Assembly (NCBI RefSeq): GCF_058153355.1
Contig: NZ_CM177019.1
Direction: 5' to 3' (one strand)
DNA: 64,000 bases
The notes beneath the pieces were generated by a model that was given only the letters and a program-made list of their open reading frames with translations, was not told where the DNA came from and did no database searches. Below, in pieces: positions 16,588 through 47,263 of this stretch. A program made the position numbers and the translations under genes. Within the stretch, counting starts at the first letter, position 1. Each line of letters opens with the position of its first letter.

Positions 16588-17049
16588 TTATTTCACTTCT
16601 TTAAAACCAGCGGCTTTCATCACCAGTTCCATTTGCGCCATAGTGATACCTTTTTTGGCATCTTCAGCAGAAACGTTGATACCTGAAATACCCTGCAGGG
16701 CTTTAAAATCAACTTTTTCCATATCGATAGTCACGTTTTCCTGAGCATAAGTATCGGTAAAGGTTAATTTTTCTTCAACGCCAGGGATGTTTTTATATTT
16801 GGCACTTAACGGCTCAAGTGTCTTGGCAGCATCTTCTTTGGTGGTTGCACCAATGGAAGCAAATTGAATTTTGGTTTCAGAAGATTGCTTAAGAACCTTG
16901 TCACCTTTGTAGACATAGGTAATAGCAATTTCAGTACCGTTCAGATTAGCGCTAAATTTCTTCGATTCTTCTTTGTCACCGCAGCCAGCAAGAGAGAAAA
17001 CCAGAACAGATGCAACAACAAGGGAAAACAGCTTATTGAAAGCCTTCAT
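16588..17049 (-). CDS. yehR: Lipoprotein (DUF1307 family)
   Basis: Lipoprotein signal peptide with lipobox (…VFSLAGCGDKEESKK). Confidence 0.8.
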   Translation of the reverse strand: MKAFNKLFSLVVASVLVFSLAGCGDKEESKKFSANLNGTEIAITYVYKGDKVLKQSSETKIQFASIGATTKEDAAKTLEPLSAKYKNIPGVEEKLTFTDTYAQENVTIDMEKVDFKALQGISGINVSAEDAKKGITMAQMELVMKAAGFKEVK

Positions 17050-24570: not shown

Positions 24571-24630
24571 CGCTTTTCCCGGTGGTAAGTCGTGTTGATA
24601 ACGGGCAGTCGCATCACTGCCCGCTGTGTT

Positions 24631-27600: not shown

Positions 27601-28287
27601 AAAATGAGTCCGCGGGCATTCAAGGCCTACCAACTCATTGGCGATTTCTGGTTTCTCCGGGAGGATGAGTGCAATAAAAGGACGGCGAACTTGGGGTAGT
27701 CCTGGCAGTGCGGCAATGAGTTTGTCGGCGCAACGCTGCCAGCAGCTTTCCTCTGCCAGAGAGAGAGGCTTACGCAGTCGGAGATCGAATTCGTTATAGG
27801 TTTCTGAGCGATAACCATAACCATAGCCATAGTCCTCCTTCTGATACTGCAATGTTACTACCAGAGGATCGTTCTCATAACACCGCGCAATAAACTGGCG
27901 TGCAATCACCACCTCAGTCGCATATTCCAGCCCCTCTTGTTGGACGATTTCGTCGAGCAACTGTTGGCTGTCATTTTGCGCGATACAGGCTAGCGCCGCC
28001 ATTGTCCGGGCCGGAATTGAGGGTTTGTGCTCGCCGATCAAGTTGATGGCTTGCGTAATGGCCGACTGCCACTCCAGTGAAAAATTTTCATAACGCCAGA
28101 CAATGTTTTTTTTCTTCTCAGCAATGTGTAGCAATTTATCACCCAGTGTCTGGATGAGGCTTTCAGTGATAACAGGCACCGGTTCGCCCGGCCAATTGCG
28201 ATGGCTGAGTGGTGTTTTGCCTTTTTTATATTTCAGTTCCAGTTGGGCGTTATCCGCCAGCCACGGTAATTCCTTGTCCATGCTCAT
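24631..28287 (-). CDS. yehI: Very large DUF4132-family protein, paralog of the two upstream MolR-like ORFs but lacking their N-terminal WGR-like domain
   Basis: 1218-aa ORF; central and C-terminal regions align visibly with the two upstream paralogs (for example …DFGPRQFTV.FDE.L.P… and …FADYE..PPF.QL…). Start lies 3 nt after the upstream gene's stop. Confidence 0.8.
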   Translation of the reverse strand: MSMDKELPWLADNAQLELKYKKGKTPLSHRNWPGEPVPVITESLIQTLGDKLLHIAEKKKNIVWRYENFSLEWQSAITQAINLIGEHKPSIPARTMAALACIAQNDSQQLLDEIVQQEGLEYATEVVIARQFIARCYENDPLVVTLQYQKEDYGYGYGYRSETYNEFDLRLRKPLSLAEESCWQRCADKLIAALPGLPQVRRPFIALILPEKPEIANELVGLECPRTHFHSKEWLKVVANDPRAVRKLERYWSQDIFSDREASYMSHENHFGYAACAALLREQGIAAVPRLAMYAHKEDCGSLLVQINHPQVIRILLLVADKNKPSLQRVAKYSKNFPHATLAALAELLALKAPPTRPGYPIIEDKKLPAQQKARDEYWRTLLQTLMASQPQLAEEVIPSLSTQARAVVNSYLSASPKPVIDSTDNSSLPEILVSPPWRGRKKASITHFSLPELTLVPQAYRSPNKHWTPEQQTAIDHFSAMSFDERLANRGADTFLRELGFEDHRWKFNEFILKGQLDALDTDQLETHTSVGRLLNYQAKQNENKHYREEAASALLAQDSVALMEGWRTFQRKFNYTDEKRWGVWNLYLIAQMPREMAVSCWQQIVAADFHYTGVEYLLSVLGTDALPGLITAFARHPKEIFPLLIHFGATELALPVARVWHRFAGQRNLARQWILQWPEHTATALIPLIFARSGDNSEAALSALRLLYEQGHGELLQTVANRWQHTDVWPALEQLLKQGPMDIYPARIPKAPDFWHPTMWSRPRIITNNQHVTDDALEIIGEMLRFTQGGRFYCGLEQLKTFCQPQTLAAFAWDLFTAWQQAGAPAKDNWAFLALSLFGDESTARDLTTQILAWPQEGKSARAVSGLNILTLMNNDMALIQLHHISQRAKSRPLRDNAAEFLQVVAENRGLSQEELADRLVPTLGLDDPQALIFDFGPRQFTVRFDENLNPVIFDQQNVRQKSVPRLRADDDQLKAPEALARLKGLKKDATQVSKNLLPRLETALRTTRRWSLADFHSLFVNHPFTRLVTQRLIWAVYPANEPRRLLNAFRVAAEGEFCNAQDEPIDLPADALIGIAHPLEMTAEMRSEFAQVFADYEIMPPFRQLMRRTVLLTPDESASNSLTRWEGKSATVGQLMGMRYKGWESGFEDACVYDLGEYRLVLKFSPGFNHYSADSKALMSFRSLRVYRDNKSVTFAELDTFDLSEALSAPDVIFH

Positions 28288-28290
28288 TCC

Positions 28291-31200
28291 TTATTCAAAC
28301 AGGGCTTCGATGTCGTTAATTAACTCGCTAGCGGTGATGTCATCGAGTGCGGAGAACTGCGCTTCCTGTGTTGAATTAATCCCCCAGCCATAGCTTTCTG
28401 CTTTGCCTTCCCATAGCCACAGCTTGCTTAAGAGTTGCTCGGCACTGAGTTCGGCTGGCGACATACCAACTGCAAATCCTTCATCGATTTCCATGATTAA
28501 TGACCAGCGGCCCAGAGGTTTGATCATCCAGCCGATCCAGCCACCGTCCTGCGGTTCACCACGCATCCAGCCTTTATTCGCCAGCCCCATTACCCGACCG
28601 CTCGGGCATTTTCTGCCTGCCCAGCGGGTCAATTCGCTGGCATTGCGCTCGGTTTCTGTCAGGGCGTAACTGTTACGGTCGAGCTGGCGGAACGGCGGTA
28701 GCAGTTCGTAGTCGGCAAAAAGCTGACCAAAGGCGGCAGCATCCGTGGGTGATATTTCCAGAACGTGAGGAATGCCAACAGAGATATCGCCTTCCGGCAG
28801 GGTGAAAAGATCATCGTCAGCGGTGCTGTAGCTGTTATCTTCCGCCACACGGAAGCACGCCAGTAACTGGTTGTCTGCGCTATAAATGCCCCAAATCAGA
28901 CGGCGGGTTAAGTGGCAGACCAGCGGATGCTCAACCAGAAAGAGCTGAAAGTTTTCTGGCGACCAGCGGCGGCGCAGGCACATGGCGGATTCCAGCCTTG
29001 CCACCTGCTGGGCGGCAACGGTACGCGCATCTTTTTTCAGCAGTTTGTAGCGGTTAACTGCATCGTTCGCTTGAGTTTCATCATCGCTTTTGTTCGGTTT
29101 AGGCAAGTCTTTCAGGCGGCTGCCGGAAGCATCACGCACAAACGGTTTTAAGGTTTCATCAAAGCTGACGGTGAACTGCCGTGGCCCGAAATCCAGCAGC
29201 AGCGAACCGTTATCATCCAGACCGAGATCCGGTGCTAACCGGTCTTCAAGCTCCGCCACCGTGAGTTCGCGGCTCTCGGCAATGTCGGCAATTTTTTCTT
29301 TTGCCCGCTCCTGTAATGCTTTGAATTTCAGTTTCTGGGCGATGCCGTTAAGCTGCATCAGGGCGATATCACTACCGATAGCAGCGAGAATATCCAGCCC
29401 GACGGTGGCGCGTTTATGCTGGGATTCACCAGGCCAGGCGCGAATCAAAGGCGTCAGTTTGCGGGCGGTATCATCGTTGCCGAGAACACCTAACGCAGTG
29501 AACGCCCAGCTTTCTTTCGACGGTGCGCCAGCGGTCTGCCAGGCGGTAAACAGATCCCAGGCAAATTCAGCCAGTGAGTCGGCGGTACAGGCATCTTTCA
29601 CCTGCAATAACCCCGCATACAGAGCCTCTTCCTGAGGGAAGCGGAGCATTTCACCGAGGTGGAGGAGGGCGTTATCTGGCAGTGATTGGGCGTTTGCTTT
29701 TAATACCGGGCGTGTCCAGAGCGATGGCTGATAAAAGGCCGGAAGTGTCGGGATTTTAGTCGGGTGATTATCTAAGGGATCGAGCGCAAGTAGAGCGTTC
29801 ACCGCATCGGTTACTTCCGGCTGGTTATAACGCTGGGCGATTTCTTGCAGTAATGACGGATAACCACTTTCAATCAACATACGTAAGGCGGCGCGGGCGT
29901 TATCCTGGGCTTCACCAGCTTTGCCGAGTGCCGCAGGCAACAGGCCGATAATGGCATGTTCCGGATATTTCAGCAGCCAGGTGCGGGCGTCTTGTCGTAG
30001 AGTTTTGAGTTTGTTAAAGGCGCGGGCGACGGCAGGAGCCAGTTCCGTTGCGGCAAAATAATTAGCAACCGCAAAACCTTCTTGAGGGTAGCGTGAAAAC
30101 GAGTGTAGAAAACCACTCATACCTGCCAGTCGCAAATAAAGCATGACAGGTTTTACCGCGGTATGCGGCTCTTTGCTGAGAAACTCCCATAGTTTAATCG
30201 CTGTTTGCATAGGTAAAAAGGGAAGTGAGTTGAGATGCCACTCCCCCTGATACGGTGCATGGTGGGCTTTAAACATTTGGATGAGTGTAGCGAAGTCCTC
30301 ACGTTCCCATGCGTCAATTGCCGAGTCAGAAGCGCCGATATATTTATATGTGTCAAAATCCCAGCGGCGATACCCCAGCGAGTAAAGGAAATCTTTAGCA
30401 CCTTCACCTGGCTTATGCGATTCCCAGTCCCAATGAGTTTGAAACTCTTTTGCTTCTGTGTCGGTTATTGTGCATATGGATTTGAGTTTGAGCGGTGCTA
30501 AATCCAACACCGGAATCGTCGATTTTTTCTTTTTCGAAAGCCAGGGAGGTAAGACTAATACGGCTGGCAGTAGAGCGGCGCAGGCATGGTTTGACGGTTG
30601 TATCAGTTGTTGCTGGCATGATTTCAGCACTTCAACTGCGGCTGTCGAGAGCCAGGGAGTGACCTGTTCTGCCAGTGCCGGTTGCGAGATAAGCATCGTC
30701 ATTAGCATAATGCGCCAAGTATTCTCTTCTTTTTGCGCAAGAAGTTCCGCCAGTGCCGCCAGTGCTGCGTGTGGGAACGCAGCGCAAGCTTTCGTCATCC
30801 GATCGTGACAGCGTTTAGTTTGCCCGGCTACACGTATGAGCAGTGTTAATGCGAACGGATGATTGATATGACGCAATACATCTGCGCAGTAGTCACTTGC
30901 GGCATAGGGAGCAAATCTGGGCAGGGCTGCAACACCTTGCTCCTGTAATACGGTGGCTGACAATATCGCACCACAATAGTAATCATCAAAAATGGCATAT
31001 GGCTCGTGATATTTTTCTAATGAGGCAAGAATGTGCTCATCAGTCGCCACTATTTTTAGCCACTCAAGCGAGGGTAATTTTTTTTTCCCCAGTAGACGCT
31101 GGGCAATTTCATGTGCAATTTCTGGTTTTTCGGGTAATAACAAAGCAATTAATGGTTGCCGCCATTCTGGAATATGTGGAATTGCGGCAATAAGTTTTTG

Positions 31201-32079
31201 TGCACATTTTTGCCAGAGAGACTCTTCCGCCAGTGATAAATGTTTCCGTAGGCGTAATTCAAAACTGGAATATTGCTGCAGGTTATCAGGTGCAATACCA
31301 GACGGCAGAATAATAATGGTATTATTCGCATAATCCCATTCAATATCAATCTGTTGAAGATGTATTACTACATCAGTAGCATATTCCAGGCCACCTTCCT
31401 GAACGAGCTGATCCATAACATCCTCACGCTCTTTATATCTCGTGCACTTCAGTTCAAGTGCCGTGAGTACAGCCATTACTGGTGATGGTAACTGTGTTGT
31501 TTTCAGGCAGTCGATCTGACTGAGCGCCTGGGAGATGGCGTTTTGCCATTCTAAAGAACAGGCGCTGAAGTCAAATGTGGCTGTTTTATTATCCCGTTGC
31601 AACACGCTACAGGCTAAGCGGCGTAACTGGGTCAATTCGTCTGCTTGCTGAACAGGAACTCCGGGAAAGCGGCGATGGCTTAACGTGGTGTGTACAACTT
31701 CGGGCGGAAAAACGACAGCAATATCTTTCGCCAGCCACGGTAAAACATCATCTGTATTTTTGTCAGCCACACGGGCTTCTGCTACGCAAAAGGGTTGTTC
31801 CTGAATAATGGTGGATAAGGCCGCTACCTTGAGAGAATCCGTTACCGTTTGGGAAGGTTGCAAAGAATTATCCTTCGCTTGCCCCACATACCCCTTCTTC
31901 ACCTTCTCCGCAATCAGCCTCAGTTCCGCTTTTTCCGCCGCCGCAGCATCAGCAAAGCTTTTTACCTGGCTTTGCCCGTTGGTACTGACTTTGCCCCAAC
32001 TAATATGCAGCTCGTTTCCCTGTTGCTCCACTGCCCAGAATTTATGTGATTTTTCGTCCTGATAAATATAGGTTTTCAT
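28291..32079 (-). CDS. MolR/YehH-family protein: N-terminal WGR-like domain plus DUF4132-type body (paralog A)
   Basis: 1262-aa ORF starting MKTYIYQDEKSHKFWAVEQQGNELHISWGKV…; ends …SVLDDITASELINDIEALFE. Its ribosome-binding site (AAGGAA) overlaps the stop of paralog B. Confidence 0.8.
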   Translation of the reverse strand: MKTYIYQDEKSHKFWAVEQQGNELHISWGKVSTNGQSQVKSFADAAAAEKAELRLIAEKVKKGYVGQAKDNSLQPSQTVTDSLKVAALSTIIQEQPFCVAEARVADKNTDDVLPWLAKDIAVVFPPEVVHTTLSHRRFPGVPVQQADELTQLRRLACSVLQRDNKTATFDFSACSLEWQNAISQALSQIDCLKTTQLPSPVMAVLTALELKCTRYKEREDVMDQLVQEGGLEYATDVVIHLQQIDIEWDYANNTIIILPSGIAPDNLQQYSSFELRLRKHLSLAEESLWQKCAQKLIAAIPHIPEWRQPLIALLLPEKPEIAHEIAQRLLGKKKLPSLEWLKIVATDEHILASLEKYHEPYAIFDDYYCGAILSATVLQEQGVAALPRFAPYAASDYCADVLRHINHPFALTLLIRVAGQTKRCHDRMTKACAAFPHAALAALAELLAQKEENTWRIMLMTMLISQPALAEQVTPWLSTAAVEVLKSCQQQLIQPSNHACAALLPAVLVLPPWLSKKKKSTIPVLDLAPLKLKSICTITDTEAKEFQTHWDWESHKPGEGAKDFLYSLGYRRWDFDTYKYIGASDSAIDAWEREDFATLIQMFKAHHAPYQGEWHLNSLPFLPMQTAIKLWEFLSKEPHTAVKPVMLYLRLAGMSGFLHSFSRYPQEGFAVANYFAATELAPAVARAFNKLKTLRQDARTWLLKYPEHAIIGLLPAALGKAGEAQDNARAALRMLIESGYPSLLQEIAQRYNQPEVTDAVNALLALDPLDNHPTKIPTLPAFYQPSLWTRPVLKANAQSLPDNALLHLGEMLRFPQEEALYAGLLQVKDACTADSLAEFAWDLFTAWQTAGAPSKESWAFTALGVLGNDDTARKLTPLIRAWPGESQHKRATVGLDILAAIGSDIALMQLNGIAQKLKFKALQERAKEKIADIAESRELTVAELEDRLAPDLGLDDNGSLLLDFGPRQFTVSFDETLKPFVRDASGSRLKDLPKPNKSDDETQANDAVNRYKLLKKDARTVAAQQVARLESAMCLRRRWSPENFQLFLVEHPLVCHLTRRLIWGIYSADNQLLACFRVAEDNSYSTADDDLFTLPEGDISVGIPHVLEISPTDAAAFGQLFADYELLPPFRQLDRNSYALTETERNASELTRWAGRKCPSGRVMGLANKGWMRGEPQDGGWIGWMIKPLGRWSLIMEIDEGFAVGMSPAELSAEQLLSKLWLWEGKAESYGWGINSTQEAQFSALDDITASELINDIEALFE

Positions 32080-32091
32080 TGCTAATTCCTT

Positions 32092-35000
32092 TTAATTAAA
32101 CAGTGATTCAATGTCGTTAATCAGCTCGCTGGCGGTGATGTCGTCGAGTACGGAGAAAGTGGGTGAGGATTGCTTACCATAGCGATCATAAGGGGCGATG
32201 ATTTTTACGCTTTCGACAGGCAGCAGGTCGCTATACCCCGTTTCGCCATAAATTAATGAAAAAGGTTCTGTTTCAAGTTCGAGAGCGCCATAAGGGGTAG
32301 ATTTGCGCATCGCATAGACGCTGCCGCTTTCTTCCAGACGTTGCCAGCCTCTGCGTTCCAGCCCGACAATGCGTCCGGCCTGGCAGAGACGTCCGTTCCA
32401 GCGTGACAATTCATGGACATTACGTTCGTTATCAGCAAGGTGGTAACTACCACGTTCGAGCTGTTGGAAGGGGGGAAGCAGTTCGTAATCAGCGTAAATT
32501 TGCCTGAATGCAGCGACAGATTCAGGGGGGATTTCCAGCATATGCGGAATACCGATGTTTCCTGCTGGTAGCGTGAATAGCTCATCCTGCATATCGCTGT
32601 AAGTGCTGTCTTCTGCGACCCGGAAGCAGGCAATCAGCGTGTTTTCCTCAGTATATACTCCCCATAACAGCCGTCGGGTTAAGTGACGTACCAGCGGATG
32701 CTCCACCAGAAACAGGCGGAACTGTTCTGCCGTCCAGCGTCTGCGCTGGCACATAGCCTGCTCCAGACGATCAATCTGCTGACTGGCAATGGCGCGCACA
32801 TCTTTCTTCAATTGTTTGAAGAGGTTAACGGCGTCAGTTGCCAGTGTTTTATCATCGCTCTGATTTGGTTTGGGTAAATCTTTCAGGACTTTGCCGTTTG
32901 CATCGCGCACTACAGGTTTTAAGGTTTCGTCAAAACCAACGGTGAATTGACGTGGGCCGAAATCCAGTATCAGCGAGCCACTGCTATCAAGCCCTAAATC
33001 TGGAGCCAGGCGGTCTTCCAGTTCAGCCATTGTCAGTCCGCGATTTTCGGCGACCATATTGATTTTGTCGCGGGCGTGTTCCTGCAATGCTTTGAATTTA
33101 ATTTTTTGTGCAATGCCATTAAGCAGCATCAGCGCAATATCGCTACCGATACTGGCTAACACATCCAGCCCAGAAACCGCACGTTTATGCTGGGATTCAC
33201 CCGGCCAGACCCGGATAAGCGGGGTTAGTTTACGCGCGGTGTCGTCATTGCCTAAAATCCCCAGCGAGGTAAATGCCCAGTTTTCTTTTGCGGGCGCGCC
33301 AGATTCCATCCATGCCGTGTAGAGATCCCAGCCAAAGTCAGCCAGTGATTCCCGGGTGAAGGTCTCTTTGATGATCGCCAGCCCAGCGTAGGAGGTAATG
33401 TCGCGTGGAAAGCTCAATATTGTGCCCAGGTGGCGCATAGCGTCATCGGGCAGAGGCAGGTTGTTACTTTTAAGCCGTGGTCTGCGCCATAAGGTGAACT
33501 GATAAAAGCCGGGCAGTGGGGCGATTTTTGCAGGATATTCTTCCAGTGGATCGCTATCGAACAATGTTGCCAGCGCAGCTAAAACATCAGGTTGATTATA
33601 TCCCCGGGCGATTTCCTCAATCGTTTCTCGCTGGTTTAAATTCACCAGCAGGCGAAGCGCCTGGCGGGCACAATCACGATCTTTTCCTTTTTTGCCCAGG
33701 GCCACAGGAAGTAGCCCGGCGGCGGCATGGTGTGGGAAGTTAGCCAGCCATTTTCGGGCATCTTCATAAGACATTTTTTTCTGTAATCGCTGCGCCATCG
33801 GTAATGCTAATTCGCTGACGCCCAGGAAAAGGGTGAATATCCACAACTGTTGTGGCTTACGTTGCAGACATTTCATAAACGCAGGAATGGCCGCATCACC
33901 AAAAATCGCCAGAATTTCTCTCTCGCCGGAGAATTGCTCTTCATTAATTATTTGATTGAGAAAAGAAATAGCATGCTGAGTGGGTAGGAAGCAGAGCGCG
34001 TACAACTGCCAGTGTCTGCTTCCTTTATTATGGTATTGCGCAAACTCTGCTTTCAGCGCGGGGAAATCGAAACGTAACAGGGCCTCAACTGCGCTTTGTG
34101 GCATTATTTTTTTTTCGTATTGTTCTTCTCCGGTTCTGCTCCATTCCTTAAACCCCAGTCGCCAAAGGATTTGCTGTTCTGGCGTTAAAGGGATGAAAGA
34201 CGTTTCCCAGCTTTCCTTTTCAATTAGTGGCAGATCGGTAAATAAGGTTTGCTGTGATGCCTGATATTTCGCGATTTCACTGAATCTGGATATGTCAGTG
34301 TGACTGATTAACTCTGTAATTCCAGGTGTGATGTCAGTGACGGAAGGGATGGGAAGTACCGGTAAATCAAATACGGGTATTACATTCTTTTTCTTATTTA
34401 TTGCCCACGGTGGAGCGACAAGCAGTTCTGGCAACATATTCGCAGTGGCATACTCACATTCTTTAGCTACTGACTGAGGACGACATTCAGATAAGATGCC
34501 TGCCGCTTTAGCATTAACCCAGGGAATGACGTCGCGTACTAACTCTGGCGTGACGGTAACCAGTTTGACAAGCGCGTTGCGCCACTGTGCATCTTCATGT
34601 ATTGCCAGCAAAGTAGCATAAGCGGCAATAGCCGCAGCGGGATGTTTTTGGCAGGCTTTGCTTAAGTATTCCAGGTGCTTTTTCTTGCCATTTACACCGA
34701 GGATCAGAATTTGAATCGCATCCGGGTGATTCGTTTTCCATAGCCATTTGACAAGATCTTCAGTCTCGCTGATGCGCTCGAAGAGATAAGTGGGATTGTC
34801 AGAATGCTCTTCCGTAAACTCAGTAAGTATCCGGCTTACACCGCGCCCCCCATTATTTGCCAGCAACATTGCCAGATAAGCGCGAAAATCACGATACAAC
34901 GGTGGGAAGTCGTATTTTTCTGCTGTAGTCAGAGCTATATCATCGGTTACTACCACTCTTAACCAGGTTATCGCCGGAACGTTTTGGTCTGCATAGCGTA

Positions 35001-35889
35001 GAGCCATAGCATTGGCAATATCCGGGCGTTCAGGGAGCAGTAACGCGGCAAAAGGTTGCCGTGCTGGGGATAGCGTCGGAATAGCAGTAAGCACTTTATC
35101 CACACAGCGTTGCCACTCATCTTCTGAAGCGAGTGAAAGATGATGACATAGACGTTGATGCCAACTCGGTAGCGATTCTGCTTCGTGATTAGGTGGAATG
35201 ATGGTGGTTACTGCGCCTTTTACTGGTTTATATTTGAGTTGAAGAGCGAGAAGGGCGATTTCAACGGCACTTTCCAGACCACAGCGAATGACTAAGTCAT
35301 CGACCAGTTCATCTTGAGAGTAAGAGTTCCAAAAGCCCCAGAGCAATGCCGCATCAGATTGCGCACTCCCTGTCTGTTTATTACCCAGAATTCGCATTTG
35401 TACCTCAGCAAAAGCCTGCTGCCAGTTTTCTGGATAAGAACGGTAATTGTTGTCGGGGTCATATGCCCTGGTGTTATTCGCGATGCGCTTCCATATTTGA
35501 CCATCTTTGTGCAGATAATTGATATCTCTGGGGCGAGAGCGATGTGGAAAAGCAAATCGGTTAATATCGTCGGTTAGCGGAATGACTGCATCATCAGCCA
35601 GCCATGGGCGTTTGTTTTTACTCTCGGGTGAAGTTTTAACGTCAGGAGTGACTTTGGTGACGGGGGATATATGCACGTTTGCCGAAGCGTCTTCCACATA
35701 GCCTTTTTTCGTTTTCTCTGCGATAAGCTTCAGTTCCGCTTTTTCCGCTGCTGCAGCATCAGCAAAATTTTTTACCTGGCTTTGCCCTTGGGTACCAACT
35801 TTTCCCCAACTGATATGCAAATCGTTACCTTGCTGCTCCACCGCCCAGAATTTATGCGATTTTTCGTCCTGAAAGATAAAGTGTCTCAT
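32092..35889 (-). CDS. MolR/YehH-family protein: N-terminal WGR-like domain plus DUF4132-type body (paralog B)
   Basis: 1265-aa ORF starting MRHFIFQDEKSHKFWAVEQQGNDLHISWGKV…; same architecture as paralog A, with a diverged middle and near-identical termini. Confidence 0.8.
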   Translation of the reverse strand: MRHFIFQDEKSHKFWAVEQQGNDLHISWGKVGTQGQSQVKNFADAAAAEKAELKLIAEKTKKGYVEDASANVHISPVTKVTPDVKTSPESKNKRPWLADDAVIPLTDDINRFAFPHRSRPRDINYLHKDGQIWKRIANNTRAYDPDNNYRSYPENWQQAFAEVQMRILGNKQTGSAQSDAALLWGFWNSYSQDELVDDLVIRCGLESAVEIALLALQLKYKPVKGAVTTIIPPNHEAESLPSWHQRLCHHLSLASEDEWQRCVDKVLTAIPTLSPARQPFAALLLPERPDIANAMALRYADQNVPAITWLRVVVTDDIALTTAEKYDFPPLYRDFRAYLAMLLANNGGRGVSRILTEFTEEHSDNPTYLFERISETEDLVKWLWKTNHPDAIQILILGVNGKKKHLEYLSKACQKHPAAAIAAYATLLAIHEDAQWRNALVKLVTVTPELVRDVIPWVNAKAAGILSECRPQSVAKECEYATANMLPELLVAPPWAINKKKNVIPVFDLPVLPIPSVTDITPGITELISHTDISRFSEIAKYQASQQTLFTDLPLIEKESWETSFIPLTPEQQILWRLGFKEWSRTGEEQYEKKIMPQSAVEALLRFDFPALKAEFAQYHNKGSRHWQLYALCFLPTQHAISFLNQIINEEQFSGEREILAIFGDAAIPAFMKCLQRKPQQLWIFTLFLGVSELALPMAQRLQKKMSYEDARKWLANFPHHAAAGLLPVALGKKGKDRDCARQALRLLVNLNQRETIEEIARGYNQPDVLAALATLFDSDPLEEYPAKIAPLPGFYQFTLWRRPRLKSNNLPLPDDAMRHLGTILSFPRDITSYAGLAIIKETFTRESLADFGWDLYTAWMESGAPAKENWAFTSLGILGNDDTARKLTPLIRVWPGESQHKRAVSGLDVLASIGSDIALMLLNGIAQKIKFKALQEHARDKINMVAENRGLTMAELEDRLAPDLGLDSSGSLILDFGPRQFTVGFDETLKPVVRDANGKVLKDLPKPNQSDDKTLATDAVNLFKQLKKDVRAIASQQIDRLEQAMCQRRRWTAEQFRLFLVEHPLVRHLTRRLLWGVYTEENTLIACFRVAEDSTYSDMQDELFTLPAGNIGIPHMLEIPPESVAAFRQIYADYELLPPFQQLERGSYHLADNERNVHELSRWNGRLCQAGRIVGLERRGWQRLEESGSVYAMRKSTPYGALELETEPFSLIYGETGYSDLLPVESVKIIAPYDRYGKQSSPTFSVLDDITASELINDIESLFN

Positions 35890-36029: not shown

Positions 36030-38063
36030 TTATTTCACCTGATGACCCGGTTTAGCACCGGCATCCGGGCTTAGCAGGAAAATATCTTTCCCGCCAGGAC
36101 CGGCAGCCATCACCATGCCTTCAGAGATACCGAAGCGCATTTTACGTGGTGCCAGGTTAGCCACCATAATGGTGTGACGACCAATCAGTGCCTGCGGATC
36201 CGGGTAGGCAGAACGAATGCCGGAGAAGACATTGCGTTTTTCACCGCCGAGATCCAGCGTCAGGCGCAGCAGTTTGTCAGAACCTTCAACAAACTCTGCG
36301 TTTTCGATCAACGCCACGCGCAGGTCAACTTTGGCGAAGTCGTCAAAGGTGATGGTTTCCTGAATCGGATCATCTGCCAGCGGGCCAGTAACTGGTGCGG
36401 CAGTGGCTTTCACTTCTTCTTTAGATGCTTCCACCAGTGCTTCAACCTGCTTCATGTCAATACGGTTATACAGTGCTTTGAACGGATTCACTTTATGGCC
36501 CAGCAGCGGTTGCTGGATACCATCCCAGGTCAGTTCCGTATTCAGGAATGCTTCCGCTCGTTCAGTCAGTTTCGGCAGTACCGGTTTCAGGTAGGTCATC
36601 AGCACGCGGAACAGGTTAATGCCCATCGAGCAAATCGCCTGCAGATCGGCATCGCGACCTTCCTGCTTCGCCACCACCCACGGAGCCTGTTCATCGACAT
36701 AGCGGTTAGCCAGATCAGCCAGCGCCATAATTTCGCGCACTGCTTTACCAAATTCGCGGCTTTCCCATGCTTCACCAATCACTTCAGCGGCATCCGTGAA
36801 GGTTTTGTACAACTGCGGGTCAGCCAGTTCGCTTGCCAACACGCCGTCAAAACGCTTGTTGATAAAGCCCGCGTTACGGGATGCCAGGTTTACAACCTTA
36901 TTAACGATATCGGCATTCACGCGCTGGACGAAATCCTCGAGATTGAGATCGATATCATCAATGCGCGAAGAGAGTTTCGCAGTGTAGTAGTAACGCAGGC
37001 TGTCAGCGTCAAAATGATTCAGCCAGGTGCTGGCTTTAATAAAGGTGCCGCGAGACTTGGACATCTTCGCGCCGTTCACCGTTACATAGCCGTGAACAAA
37101 CAGGTTGGTCGGCTTGCGGAAGTTGCTACCTTCCAACATGGCAGGCCAGAACAGGCTGTGGAAGTAAACAATATCTTTACCGATGAAGTGGTACAGCTCG
37201 GCGGTGGAGTCTTTCTTCCAGTATTCATCGAAGCTTACGCTGTCGCCGCGCTTGTCACACAGATTCTTGAAAGAACCCATGTAGCCAATCGGTGCGTCCA
37301 GCCAGACGTAGAAATATTTGCCCGGCGCGTTCGGAATTTCAAAACCGAAGTACGGTGCATCGCGGGAGATATCCCATTGTTGCAGGCCAGATTCAAACCA
37401 CTCCTGCATTTTGTTTGCCACCTGCTCCTGCAACGCACCGCTGCGGGTCCATGCCTGCAGCATTTCGCTGAAAGAGGGCAGATCAAAGAAGAAGTGTTCA
37501 GAATCACGCATTACCGGGGTAGCGCCAGAAACCACCGATTTCGGCTCGATCAATTCAGTCGGGCTATATGTTGCGCCGCAGACTTCACAGTTATCGCCGT
37601 ATTGATCCGGTGATTTACATTTCGGGCAGGTGCCTTTCACAAAACGGTCCGGCAGGAACATGCCTTTTTCCGGATCGTACAGTTGAGAGATGGTGCGGTT
37701 TTTAATAAAACCGTTTTCCTTCAGGCGAGTATAGATAAGTTCTGACAACTGGCGGTTCTCTTCGCTGTGCGTCGAGTGATAGTTGTCATAGCTGATGTTA
37801 AAGCCTGCAAAATCAGTCTGATGTTCCTGACTCATTTCGCCAATCATCTGCTCCGGAGTGATACCAAGCTGCTGAGCTTTCAGCATGATCGGTGTACCGT
37901 GGGCATCGTCGGCGCAGATGAAGTTGACCTCGTGGCCGCGCATTCGCTGGTAACGGACCCAGACATCAGCCTGGATGTGCTCCAGCATATGGCCGAGGTG
38001 GATTGAGCCGTTAGCGTACGGCAGTGCGCACGTCACCAGAATTTTCTTCGCGACTTGAGTCAT
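36030..38063 (-). CDS. metG: Methionyl-tRNA synthetase
   Basis: Class I aaRS HIGH motif (…NGSIHLGHM…), KMSKS motif, zinc-binding CPKC…CEVC knuckle; start at [10 protein letters not shown]…. Confidence 0.95.
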
Positions 38064-38194: not shown

Positions 38195-39304
38195 ATGAAC
38201 GAACAATCCCAGGCCAAATCACCAGAAGCCTTGCGCGCAATGGTCGCCGGGACACTGGCCAATTTTCAGCACCCAACCCTGAAGCATAACCTCACCACGC
38301 TGAAAGCGTTGCACCATGTCGCCTGGATGGACGACACGTTGCATGTGGAACTGGTTATGCCGTTTGTCTGGCATAGCGCGTTCGAAGAGTTAAAAGAGCA
38401 ATGTAGCGCCGAACTGCTGCGCATCACCGGGGCGAAAGCTATCGACTGGAAACTGTCGCACAATATCGCCACCTTAAAACGCGTGAAGAATCAGCCGGGA
38501 ATTAACGGCGTGAAGAACATCATTGCGGTCAGCTCCGGTAAAGGCGGCGTGGGTAAATCCTCCACGGCGGTAAATCTGGCGCTGGCACTGGCGGCGGAAG
38601 GGGCGAAAGTCGGCATTCTGGACGCCGATATCTACGGCCCATCAATACCCACCATGCTGGGCGCAGAAAATCAGCGTCCAACTTCGCCGGACGGTACCCA
38701 TATGGCACCGATTATGTCTCATGGACTGGCAACCAATTCAATTGGTTATCTGGTCACTGACGACAATGCGATGGTGTGGCGTGGTCCGATGGCGAGCAAG
38801 GCGTTAATGCAGATGTTGCAGGAAACCTTGTGGCCGGATCTCGACTATCTGGTGCTTGATATGCCGCCAGGCACCGGTGACATTCAATTGACACTGGCAC
38901 AAAATATTCCAGTAACTGGCGCGGTAGTGGTCACCACCCCGCAGGACATTGCGTTGATCGATGCGAAAAAAGGCATTGTGATGTTCGAGAAAGTCGAGGT
39001 TCCGGTGCTCGGTATTGTCGAGAACATGAGTGTGCATATTTGCAGTAACTGTGGTCACCATGAACCGATTTTCGGTACCGGTGGTGCAGAGAAACTGGCC
39101 GAGAAATACCACACGCAGTTGCTGGGGCAGATGCCGTTACACATTTCCTTACGTGAAGATCTCGATAAAGGCACGCCAACAGTTATCAGCCGTCCGGAGA
39201 GCGAATTTACTGCTATCTACCGCCAGCTGGCTGACCGCGTTGCAGCCCAGCTTTATTGGCAGGGAGAAGTCATTCCTGGCGAGATTTCCTTCCGCGCGGT
39301 CTGA
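38195..39304 (+). CDS. apbC: Mrp/ApbC-family P-loop ATPase (iron-sulfur cluster carrier)
   Basis: Deviant Walker A (SGKGGVGKSS) and CxxC (CSNCGH); start at MNEQSQAK… with AGGAG upstream. Confidence 0.9.
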   Translation: MNEQSQAKSPEALRAMVAGTLANFQHPTLKHNLTTLKALHHVAWMDDTLHVELVMPFVWHSAFEELKEQCSAELLRITGAKAIDWKLSHNIATLKRVKNQPGINGVKNIIAVSSGKGGVGKSSTAVNLALALAAEGAKVGILDADIYGPSIPTMLGAENQRPTSPDGTHMAPIMSHGLATNSIGYLVTDDNAMVWRGPMASKALMQMLQETLWPDLDYLVLDMPPGTGDIQLTLAQNIPVTGAVVVTTPQDIALIDAKKGIVMFEKVEVPVLGIVENMSVHICSNCGHHEPIFGTGGAEKLAEKYHTQLLGQMPLHISLREDLDKGTPTVISRPESEFTAIYRQLADRVAAQLYWQGEVIPGEISFRAV

Positions 39305-39376: not shown

Positions 39377-39566
39377 CCGCATTAATGAACACTTATTTAA
39401 TGCTGCGAATATTCTGCGGACCTTCGTCCGAAACTCTATAAAGTCGATTGATCGTACAGGCAATGCTTCATTATCATCCTTCGTGGCTGTGTAGTGGATG
39501 TACAGCTATAGTTTGTTATGCACTCATTCTATCCAGGCATAACCTTTACTACAGGGATAACGTTCA

Positions 39567-39848
39567 ATGAATAAGTACTGGCTGTCAGGAATTATTTTTC
39601 TTGCCTATGGAATGGCTTCTCCCGCGTTCTCTTCACAGACTGCCACATTAACGATTAATGGCAGGATCAGTCCCCCAACATGCAGTATGGCTATGGTTAA
39701 TGGTCAACCTCAACAGCATTGTGGTCAGTTAACGTATGATGTTGATACCCGTCATCAGGTTTCTTCGCCAGTCAAAGGTGTGACGACAGAAGTGGTTGTT
39801 GCAGGTAGTGATAGCAAACGTCGAATCGTGTTAAATCGCTACGATTAA
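39567..39848 (+). CDS. yehE: Small exported protein preceding the fimbrial operon
   Basis: 93-aa ORF with signal peptide (…LAYGMASPAFSSQTA). Confidence 0.7.
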   Translation: MNKYWLSGIIFLAYGMASPAFSSQTATLTINGRISPPTCSMAMVNGQPQQHCGQLTYDVDTRHQVSSPVKGVTTEVVVAGSDSKRRIVLNRYD

Positions 39849-39879
39849 TTTGCCACCCTGGTTTTTTAAGCGGATTTAG

Positions 39880-39925
39880 AAAGCTGAAATCATTCGTGTG
39901 AATGATTTCAGCTTTTTTATTGATA
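39880..39925 (+). terminator. Strong Rho-independent terminator after yehE
   Basis: aagctgaaatcattc/gaatgatttcagctt long stem followed by TTTTTTATTG. Confidence 0.6.
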
Positions 39926-40143
39926 TTAATAATACCATTTAAAAAAATCTGCATTAATTAATAGATGTGATAAATATTTAATATGCTTAAGTATTTGTTG
40001 TATTTATATTGCAATAGTTAATTTGTTTTAAATCAATAAAACAATATGTTTACATTGCGGCAACTTTTTTGATGTGAGAAATTTGTTTCCAAGAGATACA
40101 GACTCTTAACAACCAAAAAATAAATTTTATTAAGGAACATATT

Positions 40144-40686
40144 ATGAAACGTTCAATTATTGCTGCCGCTGTCTTTTCTTCTTTTTTTATGAGCGCTGGG
40201 GTATTTGCCGCAGACGTTGATACCGGAACATTAACCATTAAAGGGAATATTGCAGAATCTCCGTGTAAATTCGAAGCGGGTGGCGATTCAGTAAGTATTA
40301 ATATGCCAACTGTACCAACCACTGTCTTTGAAGGTAAAGCTAAATACTCGACCTATGATGATGCAGTCGGTGTAACCAGCAGCATGTTAAAAATTAGCTG
40401 TCCGAAAGAAGTTGCTGGTGTAAAACTCTCGTTGATTACCAACGATAAAATAACCGGAAACGATAAGGCGATAGCCAGTAGCAACGATACCGTGGGGTAC
40501 TATCTCTATTTAGGTGATAACAGCGATGTCCTGGATGTTTCTGCGCCTTTTAACATTGAAAGTTATAAAACAGCGGAAGGTCAATATGCCATTCCGTTTA
40601 AAGCGAAATATCTGAAACTGACAGATAACTCAGTGCAATCAGGTGATGTGTTATCTTCTCTGGTTATGCGTGTGGCGCAGGATTAA
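40144..40686 (+). CDS. yehD: Fimbrial major subunit (chaperone-usher pathway)
   Basis: Signal peptide and fimbrial-subunit-like size and composition; AAGGAA ribosome-binding site. Confidence 0.8.
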   Translation: MKRSIIAAAVFSSFFMSAGVFAADVDTGTLTIKGNIAESPCKFEAGGDSVSINMPTVPTTVFEGKAKYSTYDDAVGVTSSMLKISCPKEVAGVKLSLITNDKITGNDKAIASSNDTVGYYLYLGDNSDVLDVSAPFNIESYKTAEGQYAIPFKAKYLKLTDNSVQSGDVLSSLVMRVAQD

Positions 40687-40720
40687 TAAATAAAATTTCA
40701 AATTTCTCCAGGTAATAAAC

Positions 40721-40750
40721 ATGGCCGCTATCCCCATGGCGGCCTTTTAA
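40721..40750 (+). terminator. Intra-operon hairpin/attenuator between the subunit and chaperone genes
   Basis: ggccgc-tatccccat-gcggcc stem followed by TTTTAATTT, between yehD and yehC. Confidence 0.4.
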
Positions 40751-40766
40751 TTTAAGAGGCATTAAG

Positions 40767-41441
40767 ATGAAAGGATTATTAGCTTTACTTATTTCTTCTA
40801 TGGTCCTTCCTGCGCATGCCGGAATTGTTATCTACGGGACGCGCATTATTTACCCGGCAGAAAATAAAGAAGTGATGGTGCAGTTGATGAACCAGGGAAA
40901 CCGTTCTTCGCTGCTGCAGGCGTGGATTGATGATGGCGATACGTCGTTACCACCAGAAAAAATTCAGGTTCCTTTCATGTTAACGCCACCAGTGGCAAAA
41001 ATAGGGGCAAATTCCGGGCAGCAAGTAAAAATCAAAATTATGTCGAATAAACTGCCCACTAATAAAGAGAGCATTTTTTATCTGAATGTTCTGGATATTC
41101 CACCAAATAGTCCAGAGCAAGAGGGCAAGAATGCACTGAAATTTGCAATGCAAAACAGAATCAAATTGTTTTACCGGCCTGCGGGTATTGCACCGGTAAA
41201 TAAAGCGACATTTAAAAAGTTACTGGTAAATCGCAGTGGCAATGGATTGGTGATAAAAAATGACTCAGCAAATTGGGTAACGATTTCGGATGTCAAAGCT
41301 AATAATGTTAAAGTCAATTATGAAATTATCATGATTGCACCATTGGAAAGTCAGAGTGTTAATGTCAAAACTAATAATGCGAATAGCTGGCATCTGACCA
41401 TTATCGATGACCATGGCAACTATATTAGTGACAAAATTTAA
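40767..41441 (+). CDS. yehC: Periplasmic fimbrial chaperone (PapD-like)
   Basis: Signal peptide (…VLPAHA) and PapD-like N-terminal sequence (GIVIYGTRIIYPAE…). Confidence 0.85.
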   Translation: MKGLLALLISSMVLPAHAGIVIYGTRIIYPAENKEVMVQLMNQGNRSSLLQAWIDDGDTSLPPEKIQVPFMLTPPVAKIGANSGQQVKIKIMSNKLPTNKESIFYLNVLDIPPNSPEQEGKNALKFAMQNRIKLFYRPAGIAPVNKATFKKLLVNRSGNGLVIKNDSANWVTISDVKANNVKVNYEIIMIAPLESQSVNVKTNNANSWHLTIIDDHGNYISDKI

Positions 41442-41456
41442 TTGCAGGAGCTACCT

Positions 41457-43937
41457 ATGTTGAGAATGACCCCACTTGCATCAGCAATCGTAGCGTTATT
41501 GCTTGGCATTGAAGCTTATGCGGCTGAAGAAACTTTTGATACTCATTTTATGATAGGTGGAATGAAAGACCAGCAGGTTGCAAATATTCGTCTTGATGAT
41601 AATCAACCCTTGCCAGGGCAGTATGAAATCGATATTTATGTCAATAAGCAATGGCGAGGGAAATACGAGGTTATCGTTAAAGATAATCACGAAGAAACAT
41701 GCCTGGAAAGGGAAATTATAAAGCGATTGGGTTTTAATACCGATAACTTTGCCAGCGGTAAGCAATGTTTAACATTTGAGCAACTTGTTCACGGTGGGAG
41801 CTATACCTGGGATATCGGAGTTTTTCGTCTCGATTTCAGTGTACCGCAGGCGTGGGTGGAAGAACTGGAAAGTGGCTATGTTCCACCGGAAAACTGGGAG
41901 CGGGGTATTAATGCGTTTTATACCTCTTATTATGTGAGTCAGTATTACAGCGACTATAAAGCGTCGGGTAATAGCAAGAGTACATATGTACGTTTTAACA
42001 GCGGGTTAAACTTACTGGGGTGGCAACTGCATTCTGATGCCAGTTTAAGTAAAACAAATAGCAATCCAGGGGTGTGGAAAAGCAATACCCTGTATCTGGA
42101 ACGTGGATTTGCCCAACTTCTCGGCACGCTTCGCGTGGGTGATATGTACACATCAAGCGATATTTTTGATTCTGTTCGCTTCAGCGGTGTGCGGTTGTTT
42201 CGTGATATGCAGATGTTGCCTAACTCGAAACAAAATTTTACTCCACGGGTGCAGGGGATTGCTCAGAGTAACGCGCTGGTAACTATTGAACAGAACGGTT
42301 TTGTGGTTTATCAGAAAGAGGTTCCTCCTGGCCCGTTTGCGATTACAGATTTGCAGTTGGCCGGTGGTGGAGCAGATCTTGATGTCAGCGTGAAAGAGGC
42401 GGACGGTTCGGTAACCACCTATCTGGTGCCTTATGCAGCAGTGCCGAATATGCTGCAACCCGGCGTGTCGAAATATGATTTTGCGGCAGGTCGTAGCCAT
42501 ATTGAAGGGGCGAGCAAACAAAGTGATTTTGTTCAGGCGGGTTATCAGTATGGTTTTAATAACTTATTGACGCTGTATGGCGGATCGATGGTCGCGAATA
42601 ATTATTACGCGTTCACTTTGGGGACTGGCTGGAATACACGCATTGGTGCCATTTCCGTCGATGCCACGAAGTCGCATAGTAAACAAGACAACGGCGATGT
42701 GTTTGACGGGCAAAGTTATCAAATTGCCTACAACAAATTTGTGAGCCAAACGTCGACGCGTTTTGGTCTGGCGGCCTGGCGTTATTCGTCGCGTGATTAC
42801 CGGACATTTAACGATCACGTTTGGGCAAACAATAAAGATAATTATCGCCGTGATGAAAACGATATCTATGACATTGCCGATTATTACCAGAACGATTTTG
42901 GCCGTAAAAATAGCTTTTCTGCCAATATGAGCCAGTCATTGCCAGAAGGCTGGGGTTCTGTGTCTTTAAGTACGTTATGGCGAGATTACTGGGGGCGTAG
43001 CGGCAGCAGTAAGGATTATCAGTTGAGTTATTCCAACAACCTGCGACGGATAAGCTATACCCTCGCGGCAAGCCAGGCTTATGACGAGAATCATCATGAA
43101 GAGAAACGTTTTAATATTTTTATATCGATTCCCTTTGATTGGGGTGATGACGTTACGACGCCTCGTCGGCAAATATATATGTCTAACTCAACGACGTTTG
43201 ATGATCAGGGTTTTGCCTCAAATAATACGGGATTATCGGGAACCTTTGGAAGCCGGGATCAATTTAACTATGGGGTCAACCTGAGTCATCAGCATCAGGG
43301 AAATGAAACGACAGCTGGAGCGAATTTAACCTGGAACGCGCCGGTTGCGACAGTGAATGGCAGTTATAGTCAGTCGAGTGCTTATCGACAAGCTGGAGCC
43401 AGTATTTCAGGGGGCATTGTCGCCTGGTCGGGTGGCGTTAATCTGGCGAACCGTCTTTCCGAAACGTTTGCTGTAATGAACGCACCTGGAATTAAAGATG
43501 CTTATGTCAATGGGCAAAAATATCGTACAACAAATCGTAATGGAGTGGTGGTATACGACGGAATGACACCTTATCGGGAAAATCACCTGATGCTGGATGT
43601 GTCGCAAAGCGATAGTGAAACAGAATTACGTGGTAACCGGAAAATTGCCGCACCTTATCGCGGCGCGGTCGTACTGGTTAATTTTGATACCGATCAGCGC
43701 AAGCCCTGGTTTATAAAAGCGTTAAGAGCGGATGGGCAACCATTAACGTTTGGTTATGAAGTCAATGATATCCACGGTCACAATATTGGTGTTGTCGGTC
43801 AGGGAAGCCAGTTATTTATTCGCACTAATGATGTACCGCCATCGGTTAATGTGGCAATTGATAAACAACAAGGGCTCTCATGCACAATCACCTTCGGTAA
43901 AGAGATTGATGAAAATAGGAACTATATTTGCCAGTAA
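41457..43937 (+). CDS. yehB: Fimbrial outer-membrane usher
   Basis: 826-aa beta-barrel usher; start at MLRMTPLASA… with GCAGGAG upstream. Confidence 0.85.
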   Translation: MLRMTPLASAIVALLLGIEAYAAEETFDTHFMIGGMKDQQVANIRLDDNQPLPGQYEIDIYVNKQWRGKYEVIVKDNHEETCLEREIIKRLGFNTDNFASGKQCLTFEQLVHGGSYTWDIGVFRLDFSVPQAWVEELESGYVPPENWERGINAFYTSYYVSQYYSDYKASGNSKSTYVRFNSGLNLLGWQLHSDASLSKTNSNPGVWKSNTLYLERGFAQLLGTLRVGDMYTSSDIFDSVRFSGVRLFRDMQMLPNSKQNFTPRVQGIAQSNALVTIEQNGFVVYQKEVPPGPFAITDLQLAGGGADLDVSVKEADGSVTTYLVPYAAVPNMLQPGVSKYDFAAGRSHIEGASKQSDFVQAGYQYGFNNLLTLYGGSMVANNYYAFTLGTGWNTRIGAISVDATKSHSKQDNGDVFDGQSYQIAYNKFVSQTSTRFGLAAWRYSSRDYRTFNDHVWANNKDNYRRDENDIYDIADYYQNDFGRKNSFSANMSQSLPEGWGSVSLSTLWRDYWGRSGSSKDYQLSYSNNLRRISYTLAASQAYDENHHEEKRFNIFISIPFDWGDDVTTPRRQIYMSNSTTFDDQGFASNNTGLSGTFGSRDQFNYGVNLSHQHQGNETTAGANLTWNAPVATVNGSYSQSSAYRQAGASISGGIVAWSGGVNLANRLSETFAVMNAPGIKDAYVNGQKYRTTNRNGVVVYDGMTPYRENHLMLDVSQSDSETELRGNRKIAAPYRGAVVLVNFDTDQRKPWFIKALRADGQPLTFGYEVNDIHGHNIGVVGQGSQLFIRTNDVPPSVNVAIDKQQGLSCTITFGKEIDENRNYICQ

Positions 43938-45043: not shown

Positions 45044-45070
45044 CCCCCTCATGATGAGGGGGCTTTTTTT
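45044..45070 (+). terminator. Rho-independent terminator after yehA
   Basis: ccccctc-atgat-gaggggg stem followed by CTTTTTTT. Confidence 0.6.
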
Positions 45071-45407
45071 AGCGATGATAAAAAATCTCACCATCGTAGG
45101 CTTTAATGATTTTACCGTCGGTGTCGCTGATCAACACGTACGCGCCACCCATATAGGTCCAGTGCGTCCCGGCATCAGGCGCGGGCAGGTTACGTAACTG
45201 CCACTGCTTAATGTTGTACTCATCGGTGCGGTACATCTCTGGGACGGTATCGCCTGGTTTGAAATGCTTAAAGTCAGCAATGAAACTGCTTAACTCATAC
45301 TTAGAAATTCCCGAGGTATTGGTCGAACCCGCGGTGGCTGGTGCGGCCCAGGCGGCACTGGTAACCAGCAAAAGCACACCCAGCAACATCTTATTTTTAA
45401 TGGTCAT
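45069..45407 (-). CDS. rcnB: Periplasmic protein modulating Ni/Co efflux
   Basis: 112-aa product with signal peptide, MTIKNKMLLGVLLLVTSAAWA…; the track ORF extends 60 codons upstream of this start. Confidence 0.8.
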   Translation of the reverse strand: MTIKNKMLLGVLLLVTSAAWAAPATAGSTNTSGISKYELSSFIADFKHFKPGDTVPEMYRTDEYNIKQWQLRNLPAPDAGTHWTYMGGAYVLISDTDGKIIKAYDGEIFYHR

Positions 45408-46908: not shown

Positions 46909-46932
46909 AATGGCGTGAGGACACACGCCATT
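46909..46932. terminator. Hairpin between rcnR and the convergent small-protein gene
   Basis: aatggcgtg-aggaca-cacgccatt. Confidence 0.4.
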
Positions 46933-46948
46933 CGAGGATATAGTTTGA

Positions 46949-47263
46949 TTAATTTTCGAAAAATTGCTTCACAGCCCAGCCACCATGACCACCTGGAGTT
47001 ATGAATGAAACAAAACCTTTGTCATCGACGCTCTGGATTTCTACTGTCATTGATTCATCTAACACGCGACATTTATTGGATGTAATGAGACTCAGCATAG
47101 CCTGTTGGTCATTGTCCTGGATGTAACTGATCATCTCGTAAAAGTCAGTTAACTTTTTACAGTTAAATGTACCTTCTTTAAGTGTTGCGCTGTCTCCGTG
47201 ACTTAGTGCGAATGCATTTGGCATCATTGCCACAAAGATGACGGTAACGAGTAGTTTTTTCAT
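46949..47263 (-). CDS. Small secreted hypothetical protein (104 aa)
   Basis: Signal peptide (MKKLLVTVIFVAMMPNAFA); lies in a visibly AT-rich segment. Confidence 0.55.
   Translation of the reverse strand: MKKLLVTVIFVAMMPNAFALSHGDSATLKEGTFNCKKLTDFYEMISYIQDNDQQAMLSLITSNKCRVLDESMTVEIQSVDDKGFVSFITPGGHGGWAVKQFFEN

Follow-up and report, generated by a model that had tools for sequence, protein, structure and literature searches.

The closest described counterpart of the element analyzed here belongs to the pap operon, where a partial terminator between papA and papH lowers the level of the downstream transcripts (Baga 1985, as far as its summary in PMC6524683 goes). Comparable elements act in malEFG, cfaAB, and puf, in which 3' stem-loops stabilize the upstream cistron (PMC5927463; PMC4423207). 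The Yeh fimbria is a gamma4-type, core-associated fimbria of E. coli and the counterpart of Salmonella Stc (PMC3559732; PMC7098969). Its operon, yehDCBA, is cryptic, was found bound by H-NS in two ChIP studies, is repressed by H-NS, and is de-repressed 3.6-fold by SlyA (PMC5797941); moreover, it is silenced within a static extended protein-occupancy domain (EPOD; bioRxiv 2024.06.20.599902), and CsrA binds the yehD 5' UTR in EHEC (PMC11287998).

The window, that is, the whole 64-kb stretch of DNA under analysis, is colinear with E. coli chromosomes (99.6% to strain MFDS1022581 and about 95% to K-12), and 5,334 of the 5,426 complete E. coli genomes compared carry the yeh locus. Pfam matches identify yehDCBA as a chaperone-usher operon consisting of a subunit, a chaperone, an usher, and YehA with its Fimbrial domain (Table 1). 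The stop codon of yehD is a TAA directly adjoined by a second TAA. Residues 1-44 of YehD (40144-40275) give a weak match to DUF2574, the YehE family, with E = 8e-4 and below the Pfam cut-off, which hints that YehE and YehD may share a signal peptide or an N-terminal segment.

Table 1. Features of the yeh locus and of its neighbors, numbered from the first letter of the window
Feature	Coordinates	Strand	Evidence
metG	36030-38063	-	
apbC	38195-39304	+	
yehE, DUF2574 family, 93 aa	39567-39848	+	Pfam PF10836, 172.7 bits; RefSeq annotation of colinear genome
yehE hairpin, terminator-like, 18 pairs leading into a T run	39878-39917	+	Scan match; sequence
yehD promoter and 5' UTR region, AT-rich, 20.8% GC, probable H-NS target	39918-40143	+	Composition; literature
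yehD, fimbrial subunit, 180 aa, first gene of the operon	40144-40686	+	Pfam Fimbrial PF00419, 31.2 bits (above cut-off); annotation
Conserved core hairpin GGCCGCUAU-CCCC-AUGGCGGCC, 9 bp, 4-nt loop	40723-40744	+	Fold, scan, covariation
Interrupted T-tract TTTTAATTT, U-tail of the terminator-like element, lineage-variable	40745-40753	+	Sequence
yehC ribosome-binding site AAGAGG, 7-nt spacer, and ATG	40754-40769	+	Escherichia alignments: invariant across alleles
yehC, periplasmic chaperone, 224 aa	40767-41441	+	Pfam PapD_N/PapD_C
yehB, outer-membrane usher, 826 aa	41457-43937	+	Pfam Usher, PapC_N, PapC_C
yehA, putative tip adhesin or second subunit, 344 aa	43953-44987	+	Pfam Fimbrial, residues 184-344 (C-terminal half); annotation
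Operon-end terminator CCCCCTCATGATGAGGGGG + CTTTTTTT, T run uninterrupted	45044-45070	+	Scan matches
rcnB	45069-45407	-	

The region upstream of yehD had been described in the initial annotation as some 300 bp of AT-rich DNA consistent with an H-NS-silenced cryptic fimbrial promoter. The silencing is supported by the published work on H-NS and on the EPOD cited above, and the composition holds as well, since 39849-40143 has 24.4% GC against 49.9% for the window; what had been missed is that the first ~70 nt of this region end in the terminator-like hairpin of yehE. Because yehE has a terminator-like hairpin of its own, yehD needs its own promoter in the remaining part, which is even poorer in GC. 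In CFT073, an IS200C transposase gene lies between yehE and yehD (290-748 of the extracted locus), in or adjoining the yehD promoter region.

The GC-rich hairpin followed by a T run that the initial annotation had placed between yehD and yehC is real, as the sequence, the fold, and the Pfam assignments of the flanking genes agree. The coordinates 40721-40750 given for it designate the right object but start 2 nt early and stop three Ts short. Positions 40720-40769 read c at GGCCGCTAT CCCC ATGGCGGCC TTTTAATTT AAGAGG cattaag ATG, with the 5' arm of the hairpin at 40723-40731, the CCCC loop at 40732-40735, and the 3' arm at 40736-40744. The nine pairs (6 G-C, 1 U.G, and 2 A-U) give the hairpin about -14.5 kcal/mol when it is folded by itself and -15.7 kcal/mol within a context of 46 nt; when the 84-nt spacer is folded, the MFE and the centroid structures both contain it. 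A GC-rich stem of 9 bp with a loop of 4 nt and this stability is what is expected of a Rho-independent terminator, for which stems of about 5-14 bp, loops of 3-8 nt, and a U-tract of about 7-9 nt directly behind the stem are usual, and the place of the element, between the subunit and the assembly genes and within one transcript, is that of the pap element. The subsequent tail is TTTT AA TTT, with 4 contiguous Us, an AA break, and 6 U in the first 8 nt; the resulting RNA tract, UUUUAAUUU, is an interrupted U run that, judged by its make-up, would be acceptable for a weak or moderate terminator and not for a strong one. The spacer between the two genes measures 80 nt, and the hairpin within it ends 10 nt 5' of the yehC Shine-Dalgarno. 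A scan for promoter-like sites returned none in the spacer, including the 22 nt that separate yehC from the hairpin. The footprint of a ribosome terminating at the yehD stop codon should not melt the hairpin, because the latter starts 36 nt 3' of that codon.

A loose terminator pattern finds 7 sites in the 8-kb region against 8.0 +/- 3.4 in shuffled sequences, without enrichment, and the fold of the whole spacer, which is AU-rich, is unexceptional (z-score -1.19); therefore, the loose pattern alone proves nothing, even if the yehD-yehC hairpin is the top terminator-like match of the 8-kb scan. Stricter measures give a different picture. Of 300 dinucleotide shuffles of the spacer, a single one produces a perfect-stem hairpin as stable as that observed. 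When a site is required to have at least 6 bp, an energy of -12 kcal/mol or lower, and T in 5 or more of 8 nt, the 64-kb window holds 8 such sites where shuffled sequences hold about 1. Among the remaining strict sites are those at the ends of dld, metG, and yehA, and the anatomy of the yehD-yehC element places it in the same class as these. Compared with the operon-end terminators of yehA (45044-45070) and metG (36020-35997), the yeh element shares the GC-rich stem of 8-10 bp, the loop of 3-4 nt, the T-rich tail, and a similar hairpin energy, between -14 and -16 kcal/mol. In contrast, it is internal to the operon, 10 nt from the next Shine-Dalgarno, and its T run is broken after four residues (TTTTAATTT), unlike the CTTTTTTT and TTCTTTAT of the operon-end terminators; the broken run, set against the CTTTTTTT that follows yehA, agrees better with leaky termination than with a complete stop.

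The comparison of Escherichia alleles separates the parts of the element that are held constant from those that vary. About 390 E. coli genomes, including O157:H7 and B379, carry a junction allele that is only ~76% identical to the majority type (B379 and ERL06-2497 were the genomes of this divergent type compared), and E. albertii, E. whittamii, and cryptic-clade Escherichia have the same O157-type allele, which suggests an old allelic split or recombination at the yehD surface-antigen gene. Between the window-type and the O157-type alleles, the stem arms are identical at 17 of 18 positions, the sole change turning the U.G pair into C-G, and the ribosome-binding block of yehC at 27 of 28, whereas identity falls to 1 of 4 positions in the loop, 4 of 10 in the tail, and 21 of 41 in the spacer upstream of the stem. 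Across an alignment of 11 Escherichia sequences, 95.9% of the cells are paired, against 15-63% in slid controls, and three pairs show double, compensatory changes, such as the A-U pairs that replace G-C in E. whittamii and E. albertii, and also in Escherichia sp. MOD1-EC7003. The RNAalifold consensus of these sequences is the hairpin alone, with no competing structure. The one-sided changes are wobbles that are valid on the + strand only, namely a U.G as the seventh pair and, in ETEC-2264, a G.U as the base pair, and the + strand folds are the more stable ones (-15.7 against -13.1 kcal/mol for the - strand in the window; -13.3 against -9.3 kcal/mol in ETEC2264); both observations point to a function in the sense RNA.

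The tail behaves differently from the stem. The proximal TTTT is invariant in all the window-type E. coli sequences compared (the window, K-12, CFT073, ETEC2264, FDAARGOS_144, and two further loci), and most E. coli, including the window, K-12, and CFT073, have the tail TTTTAATTT. This tail is replaced by AGCATAAATAT or a similar sequence in the O157-type, E. albertii, E. whittamii, and cryptic-clade alleles, in which the hairpin is kept with AGCAUAAAUAU in place of the U-tract; in the O157-type and E. albertii alleles, the stem is even kept or strengthened, to -19.4 kcal/mol.

The same division extends to the wider family. A scan with YehC, limited to one genome per species, yields 79 loci, and the ORF upstream of the chaperone gene matches the YehD-family profile in 71 of the 76 loci analyzed. 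Nearly all the enterobacterial subunit-to-chaperone spacers (38 of 39) contain a hairpin of -12 to -23 kcal/mol with p<=0.01 against dinucleotide shuffles; the stem sequences are wholly different between genera while their pairing is kept, and nothing is conserved in the loops across the loci that could bind a factor. In a second-clade alignment of Citrobacter, Salmonella diarizonae, Superficieibacter, and a paralogous Escherichia cluster, 94.9% of the cells are paired and five pairs have double changes, a result matched by 1 of 500 shuffles. Judged from these alignments, the stem is under purifying and compensatory selection, and a chance inverted repeat is excluded. For the yeh element, the data show its anatomy and its location, that its stem is selected, and that it acts as + strand RNA. 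In 30 of 38 loci, 19-29 nt separate the 3' end of the hairpin from the start codon of the chaperone gene, whereas the distance to the subunit stop ranges from 2 to 44 nt, so that the hairpin seems anchored to the downstream ribosome-binding site.

When T residues are counted in the 8 nt after the stem, starting from the outermost G-C pair, the 38 loci divide into 17 with at least 5 T, 8 with 4 T, and 13 with 3 T or fewer, and the hairpin is kept in all 13 of the latter. The T-rich tails are about five-fold enriched over the ~8% expected from composition, a figure that is our own rough estimate; since 17 of 38 is well above it, many of the family elements are probably real terminators. The U-tract is not kept together with the hairpin in the orthologues, hence termination cannot be the universally conserved function, and since the hairpin persists where the T-tract is absent, the conserved object is the stem-loop. 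On the evidence of these alignments, the terminator tail is a lineage-specific gain or loss on a conserved stem-loop. A stable and conserved structure is thus found at the 3' boundary of the favored cistron, as in 3' protective stem-loops, and by this comparison the conserved stem-loop fits a role in mRNA 3'-end protection at least as well as one in termination.

The reading that we hold to be moderately probable is that an operon-internal RNA stem-loop at the 3' end of yehD combines leaky termination with 3' protection, the two acting together so that yehD mRNA outnumbers yehCBA mRNA. RNA polymerase starting from the H-NS-silenced yehD promoter would transcribe the hairpin and the UUUUAAUUU tract, and a fraction of the complexes would stop at the hairpin by leaky Rho-independent termination, while the remaining ones would read through into yehCBA, whose ribosome-binding site lies 10 nt past the stem. 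The hairpin would then keep 3'-to-5' exonucleases from attacking the end of the short yehD transcript, and would likewise shield read-through transcripts cut in the downstream AU-rich stretch. The two roles are compatible, as a terminator hairpin is also an exonuclease barrier, and for the window allele both are favored because the stem is directly followed by UUUU, as in the bona fide terminators nearby. That termination takes place, with what efficiency, and that the hairpin stabilizes the upstream message, we infer from anatomy, conservation, and analogy. Read-through into yehCBA is expected because all four yeh genes respond together to SlyA overexpression in K-12 (PMC5797941), because promoters upstream of the operon yield fimbriae, whether constitutive (Korea 2010, in the terms in which PMC5797941 describes it) or in a Tet-on construct (PMC7098969), and because the EHEC locus gives one transcript by RT-PCR, an assay that was non-quantitative and concerns a T-less allele (PMC11287998). 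Among published data sets, the searchable supplements of the Term-seq study PMC7815308 (Adams 2021) have no yehD/yehC entry, which is expected because the operon is silent, and those of PMC9002310 contain nothing for yehD or yehC.

The main rival to combined termination and protection is a pure decay barrier, in which the hairpin would give no useful termination, RNase E would cut the full-length yehDCBA mRNA downstream of it, and the hairpin would block 3'-to-5' exonucleases so that yehD outlives yehCBA. The near-universal hairpin with its optional T-tract, the O157-type and E. albertii stems kept or reinforced to -19.4 kcal/mol without that tract, and the single EHEC transcript all speak for it, and both alleles continue past the stem with an AU-rich, single-stranded stretch, the AA|UUU of the window fitting the RN|WUU preference of RNase E (PMC5927463). 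Selective RNA processing and stabilization has precedents in malE-malF, cfaAB, and puf (PMC5927463, PMC4423207), and for the T-less alleles the pure barrier is a better description than termination with protection. Nevertheless, the UUUU directly after the stem, with U in 6 of 8 nt, gives the window element an anatomy indistinguishable from that of true terminators in its vicinity, the family has T-rich tails about five times as often as expected, and the barrier and terminator roles are not exclusive, so that we regard the barrier without termination as rather unlikely to be the full account. The opposite extreme, an efficient and complete terminator that leaves yehD monocistronic and yehCBA dependent on its own promoter, would agree with the strong stem and the UUUU directly behind it; it is very improbable in view of the lack of any promoter-like site in the spacer scan, including the 22 nt before yehC, of the co-response of the four genes to SlyA (PMC5797941), of the fimbriae obtained from promoters upstream of the operon (PMC7098969, and Korea 2010 within the account in PMC5797941), and of the interruption in the T-tract that the CTTTTTTT at the operon end does not have.

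Two further readings move the function away from the 3' end of yehD. The element could be linked to the translation of yehC, by insulating its ribosome-binding site, by setting the accessibility of this site, or by protecting the 5' end of a processed yehCBA mRNA, as 5' hairpins protect downstream segments in papBA-type processing (PMC5927463). The narrow spacing to the chaperone start, 19-29 nt for 30 of the 38 loci, next to a subunit-stop distance of 2 to 44 nt, would suit this reading, as would the ribosome-binding block being the other conserved island of the spacer (27 of 28) and the pairing, in the MFE fold of the window, of UCUC 5' of the hairpin with GAGG of the Shine-Dalgarno. However, a constant spacing also follows from a tail of 8-10 nt, a Shine-Dalgarno, and its spacer in a compact intergenic region, the loops offer no conserved candidate for factor binding, and the upstream pyrimidine run is not conserved; a translation-linked role is therefore improbable. 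Sequestration of the Shine-Dalgarno by the UCUC-GAGG helix was rejected as a conserved feature because the helix is absent from the RNAalifold consensus of the 11 sequences, which holds the hairpin only. Least credible of all is that the element works as a DNA palindrome (a site for a dimeric regulator or a REP-like repeat), as a 9-codon mini-ORF, or not at all, as a chance inverted repeat. The repeat is indeed near-perfect, but its stem sequences differ completely between genera with the pairing kept, its wobble substitutions fit the + strand RNA only, and conservation excludes chance. A REP/BIME repeat was rejected, with one match in 64 kb at <=3 mismatches; the hairpin is single copy in the window and has no Rfam family match, Rfam 15 giving over 39500-41500 only chance-level matches well below the gathering thresholds, and a 341-nt junction query finds a median of one place per E. 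coli genome. The mini-ORF at 40721-40750 runs from ATG to TAA (ATG GCC GCT ATC CCC ATG GCG GCC TTT TAA) and encodes MAAIPMAAF, but the frame of its ATG shifts with the length of the loop, and a separate 9-codon ORF exists only in the window. The ATG continues in the frame of yehC, adding 15 or 16 codons, both in K-12, whose loop is one base shorter, and in the O157-type allele; the mini-ORF was rejected on this account, as its frame is not conserved and coding is unlikely. A yehC with these extra N-terminal codons matches the older 239-aa annotation of the gene.

Combined termination and protection, the favored reading, draws on both groups of known systems and departs from each. As in pap, a stem-loop follows the major subunit gene directly and precedes the assembly genes of a chaperone-usher operon, and by analogy the yeh element is expected to lower the downstream transcripts and to leave a stable, hairpin-ended subunit mRNA. 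Unlike pap, yeh is a gamma4-type operon with the chaperone gene directly after the subunit gene, it has neither a papH-like gene nor a papB-papA processing site, and its U-tract is interrupted and often absent in orthologues; the pap anatomy is taken here from the literature alone. The initial annotation had called the yeh hairpin a partial terminator and had held that chaperone-usher operons often use such elements to set the ratio of subunit to assembly machinery. The former claim agrees with the anatomy, the position, the selection on the stem, and the pap precedent, and is narrowed by a T-tract that is interrupted here and missing in the O157-type, E. albertii, E. whittamii, and cryptic-clade alleles and in 13 of 38 loci. 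The latter has its example in papA-papH, within the extent of the PMC6524683 summary, but does not hold throughout: the fimA-fimI spacer of K-12 (16873-16936 of the extracted region) has a 5-bp hairpin, GGGCA-GGGA-TGCCC, without a T-tract, and a simple terminator scan of it gives no match, so that, by such a scan, not every chaperone-usher operon has a terminator of this kind.

With the malE-malF REP, cfaAB (CFA/I fimbriae), and puf elements, the yeh element shares a stable hairpin at the 3' boundary of the 5'-most and most-needed cistron and a structure that is conserved in related species. By analogy, a decay barrier of this type would explain the yeh alleles that have the hairpin without the T-tract. 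Differently from the malE-malF REP, the yeh hairpin is a unique sequence with no REP repeat, and differently from decay barriers, which need none, the window allele carries a U-tail.

It is possible, and we propose it only tentatively, that the stem-loop itself is the conserved unit in gamma4-type operons, standing ~22-25 nt before the chaperone start and acting mainly as a decay barrier, and that the T-tract is a gain-or-loss switch between attenuating transcription and processing and stabilizing the mRNA. If the T-tract is such a switch, the majority TTTTAATTT alleles and the O157:H7-type alleles of E. coli would differ heritably in the ratio of subunit to machinery. The E. coli alleles with and without the T-tract are a natural test of attenuation against stabilization. 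Should combined termination and protection be correct, it would explain how a four-gene operon with a single promoter makes a large excess of pilus subunit over chaperone, usher, and adhesin, and mutations in the stem or the T-tract would be a simple handle for expressing Yeh fimbriae. The yeh hairpin is an ordinary and familiar operon design, undescribed for yeh in the literature searched, and it changes no established view; its novelty is modest and lies in a T-tract that is naturally present or absent on a conserved hairpin, including between two allele types of E. coli. Because the hairpin is near-universal and the T-tract facultative, labeling such elements as terminators from sequence alone can mislead.

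Elsewhere in the window, three large tandem genes with DUF4132 domains occupy 24625-35889 on the - strand, and the one adjoining metG is annotated as a frameshifted pseudogene in K-12 HMS174. A strong hairpin-plus-T site on the + strand (24602-24623) lies between the - strand genes yehK and a DUF4132 gene, in an orientation that fits neither neighbor. According to the annotation of the colinear genome NZ_CP169399.1, a TPP riboswitch is located upstream of thiM at 46918-47014.
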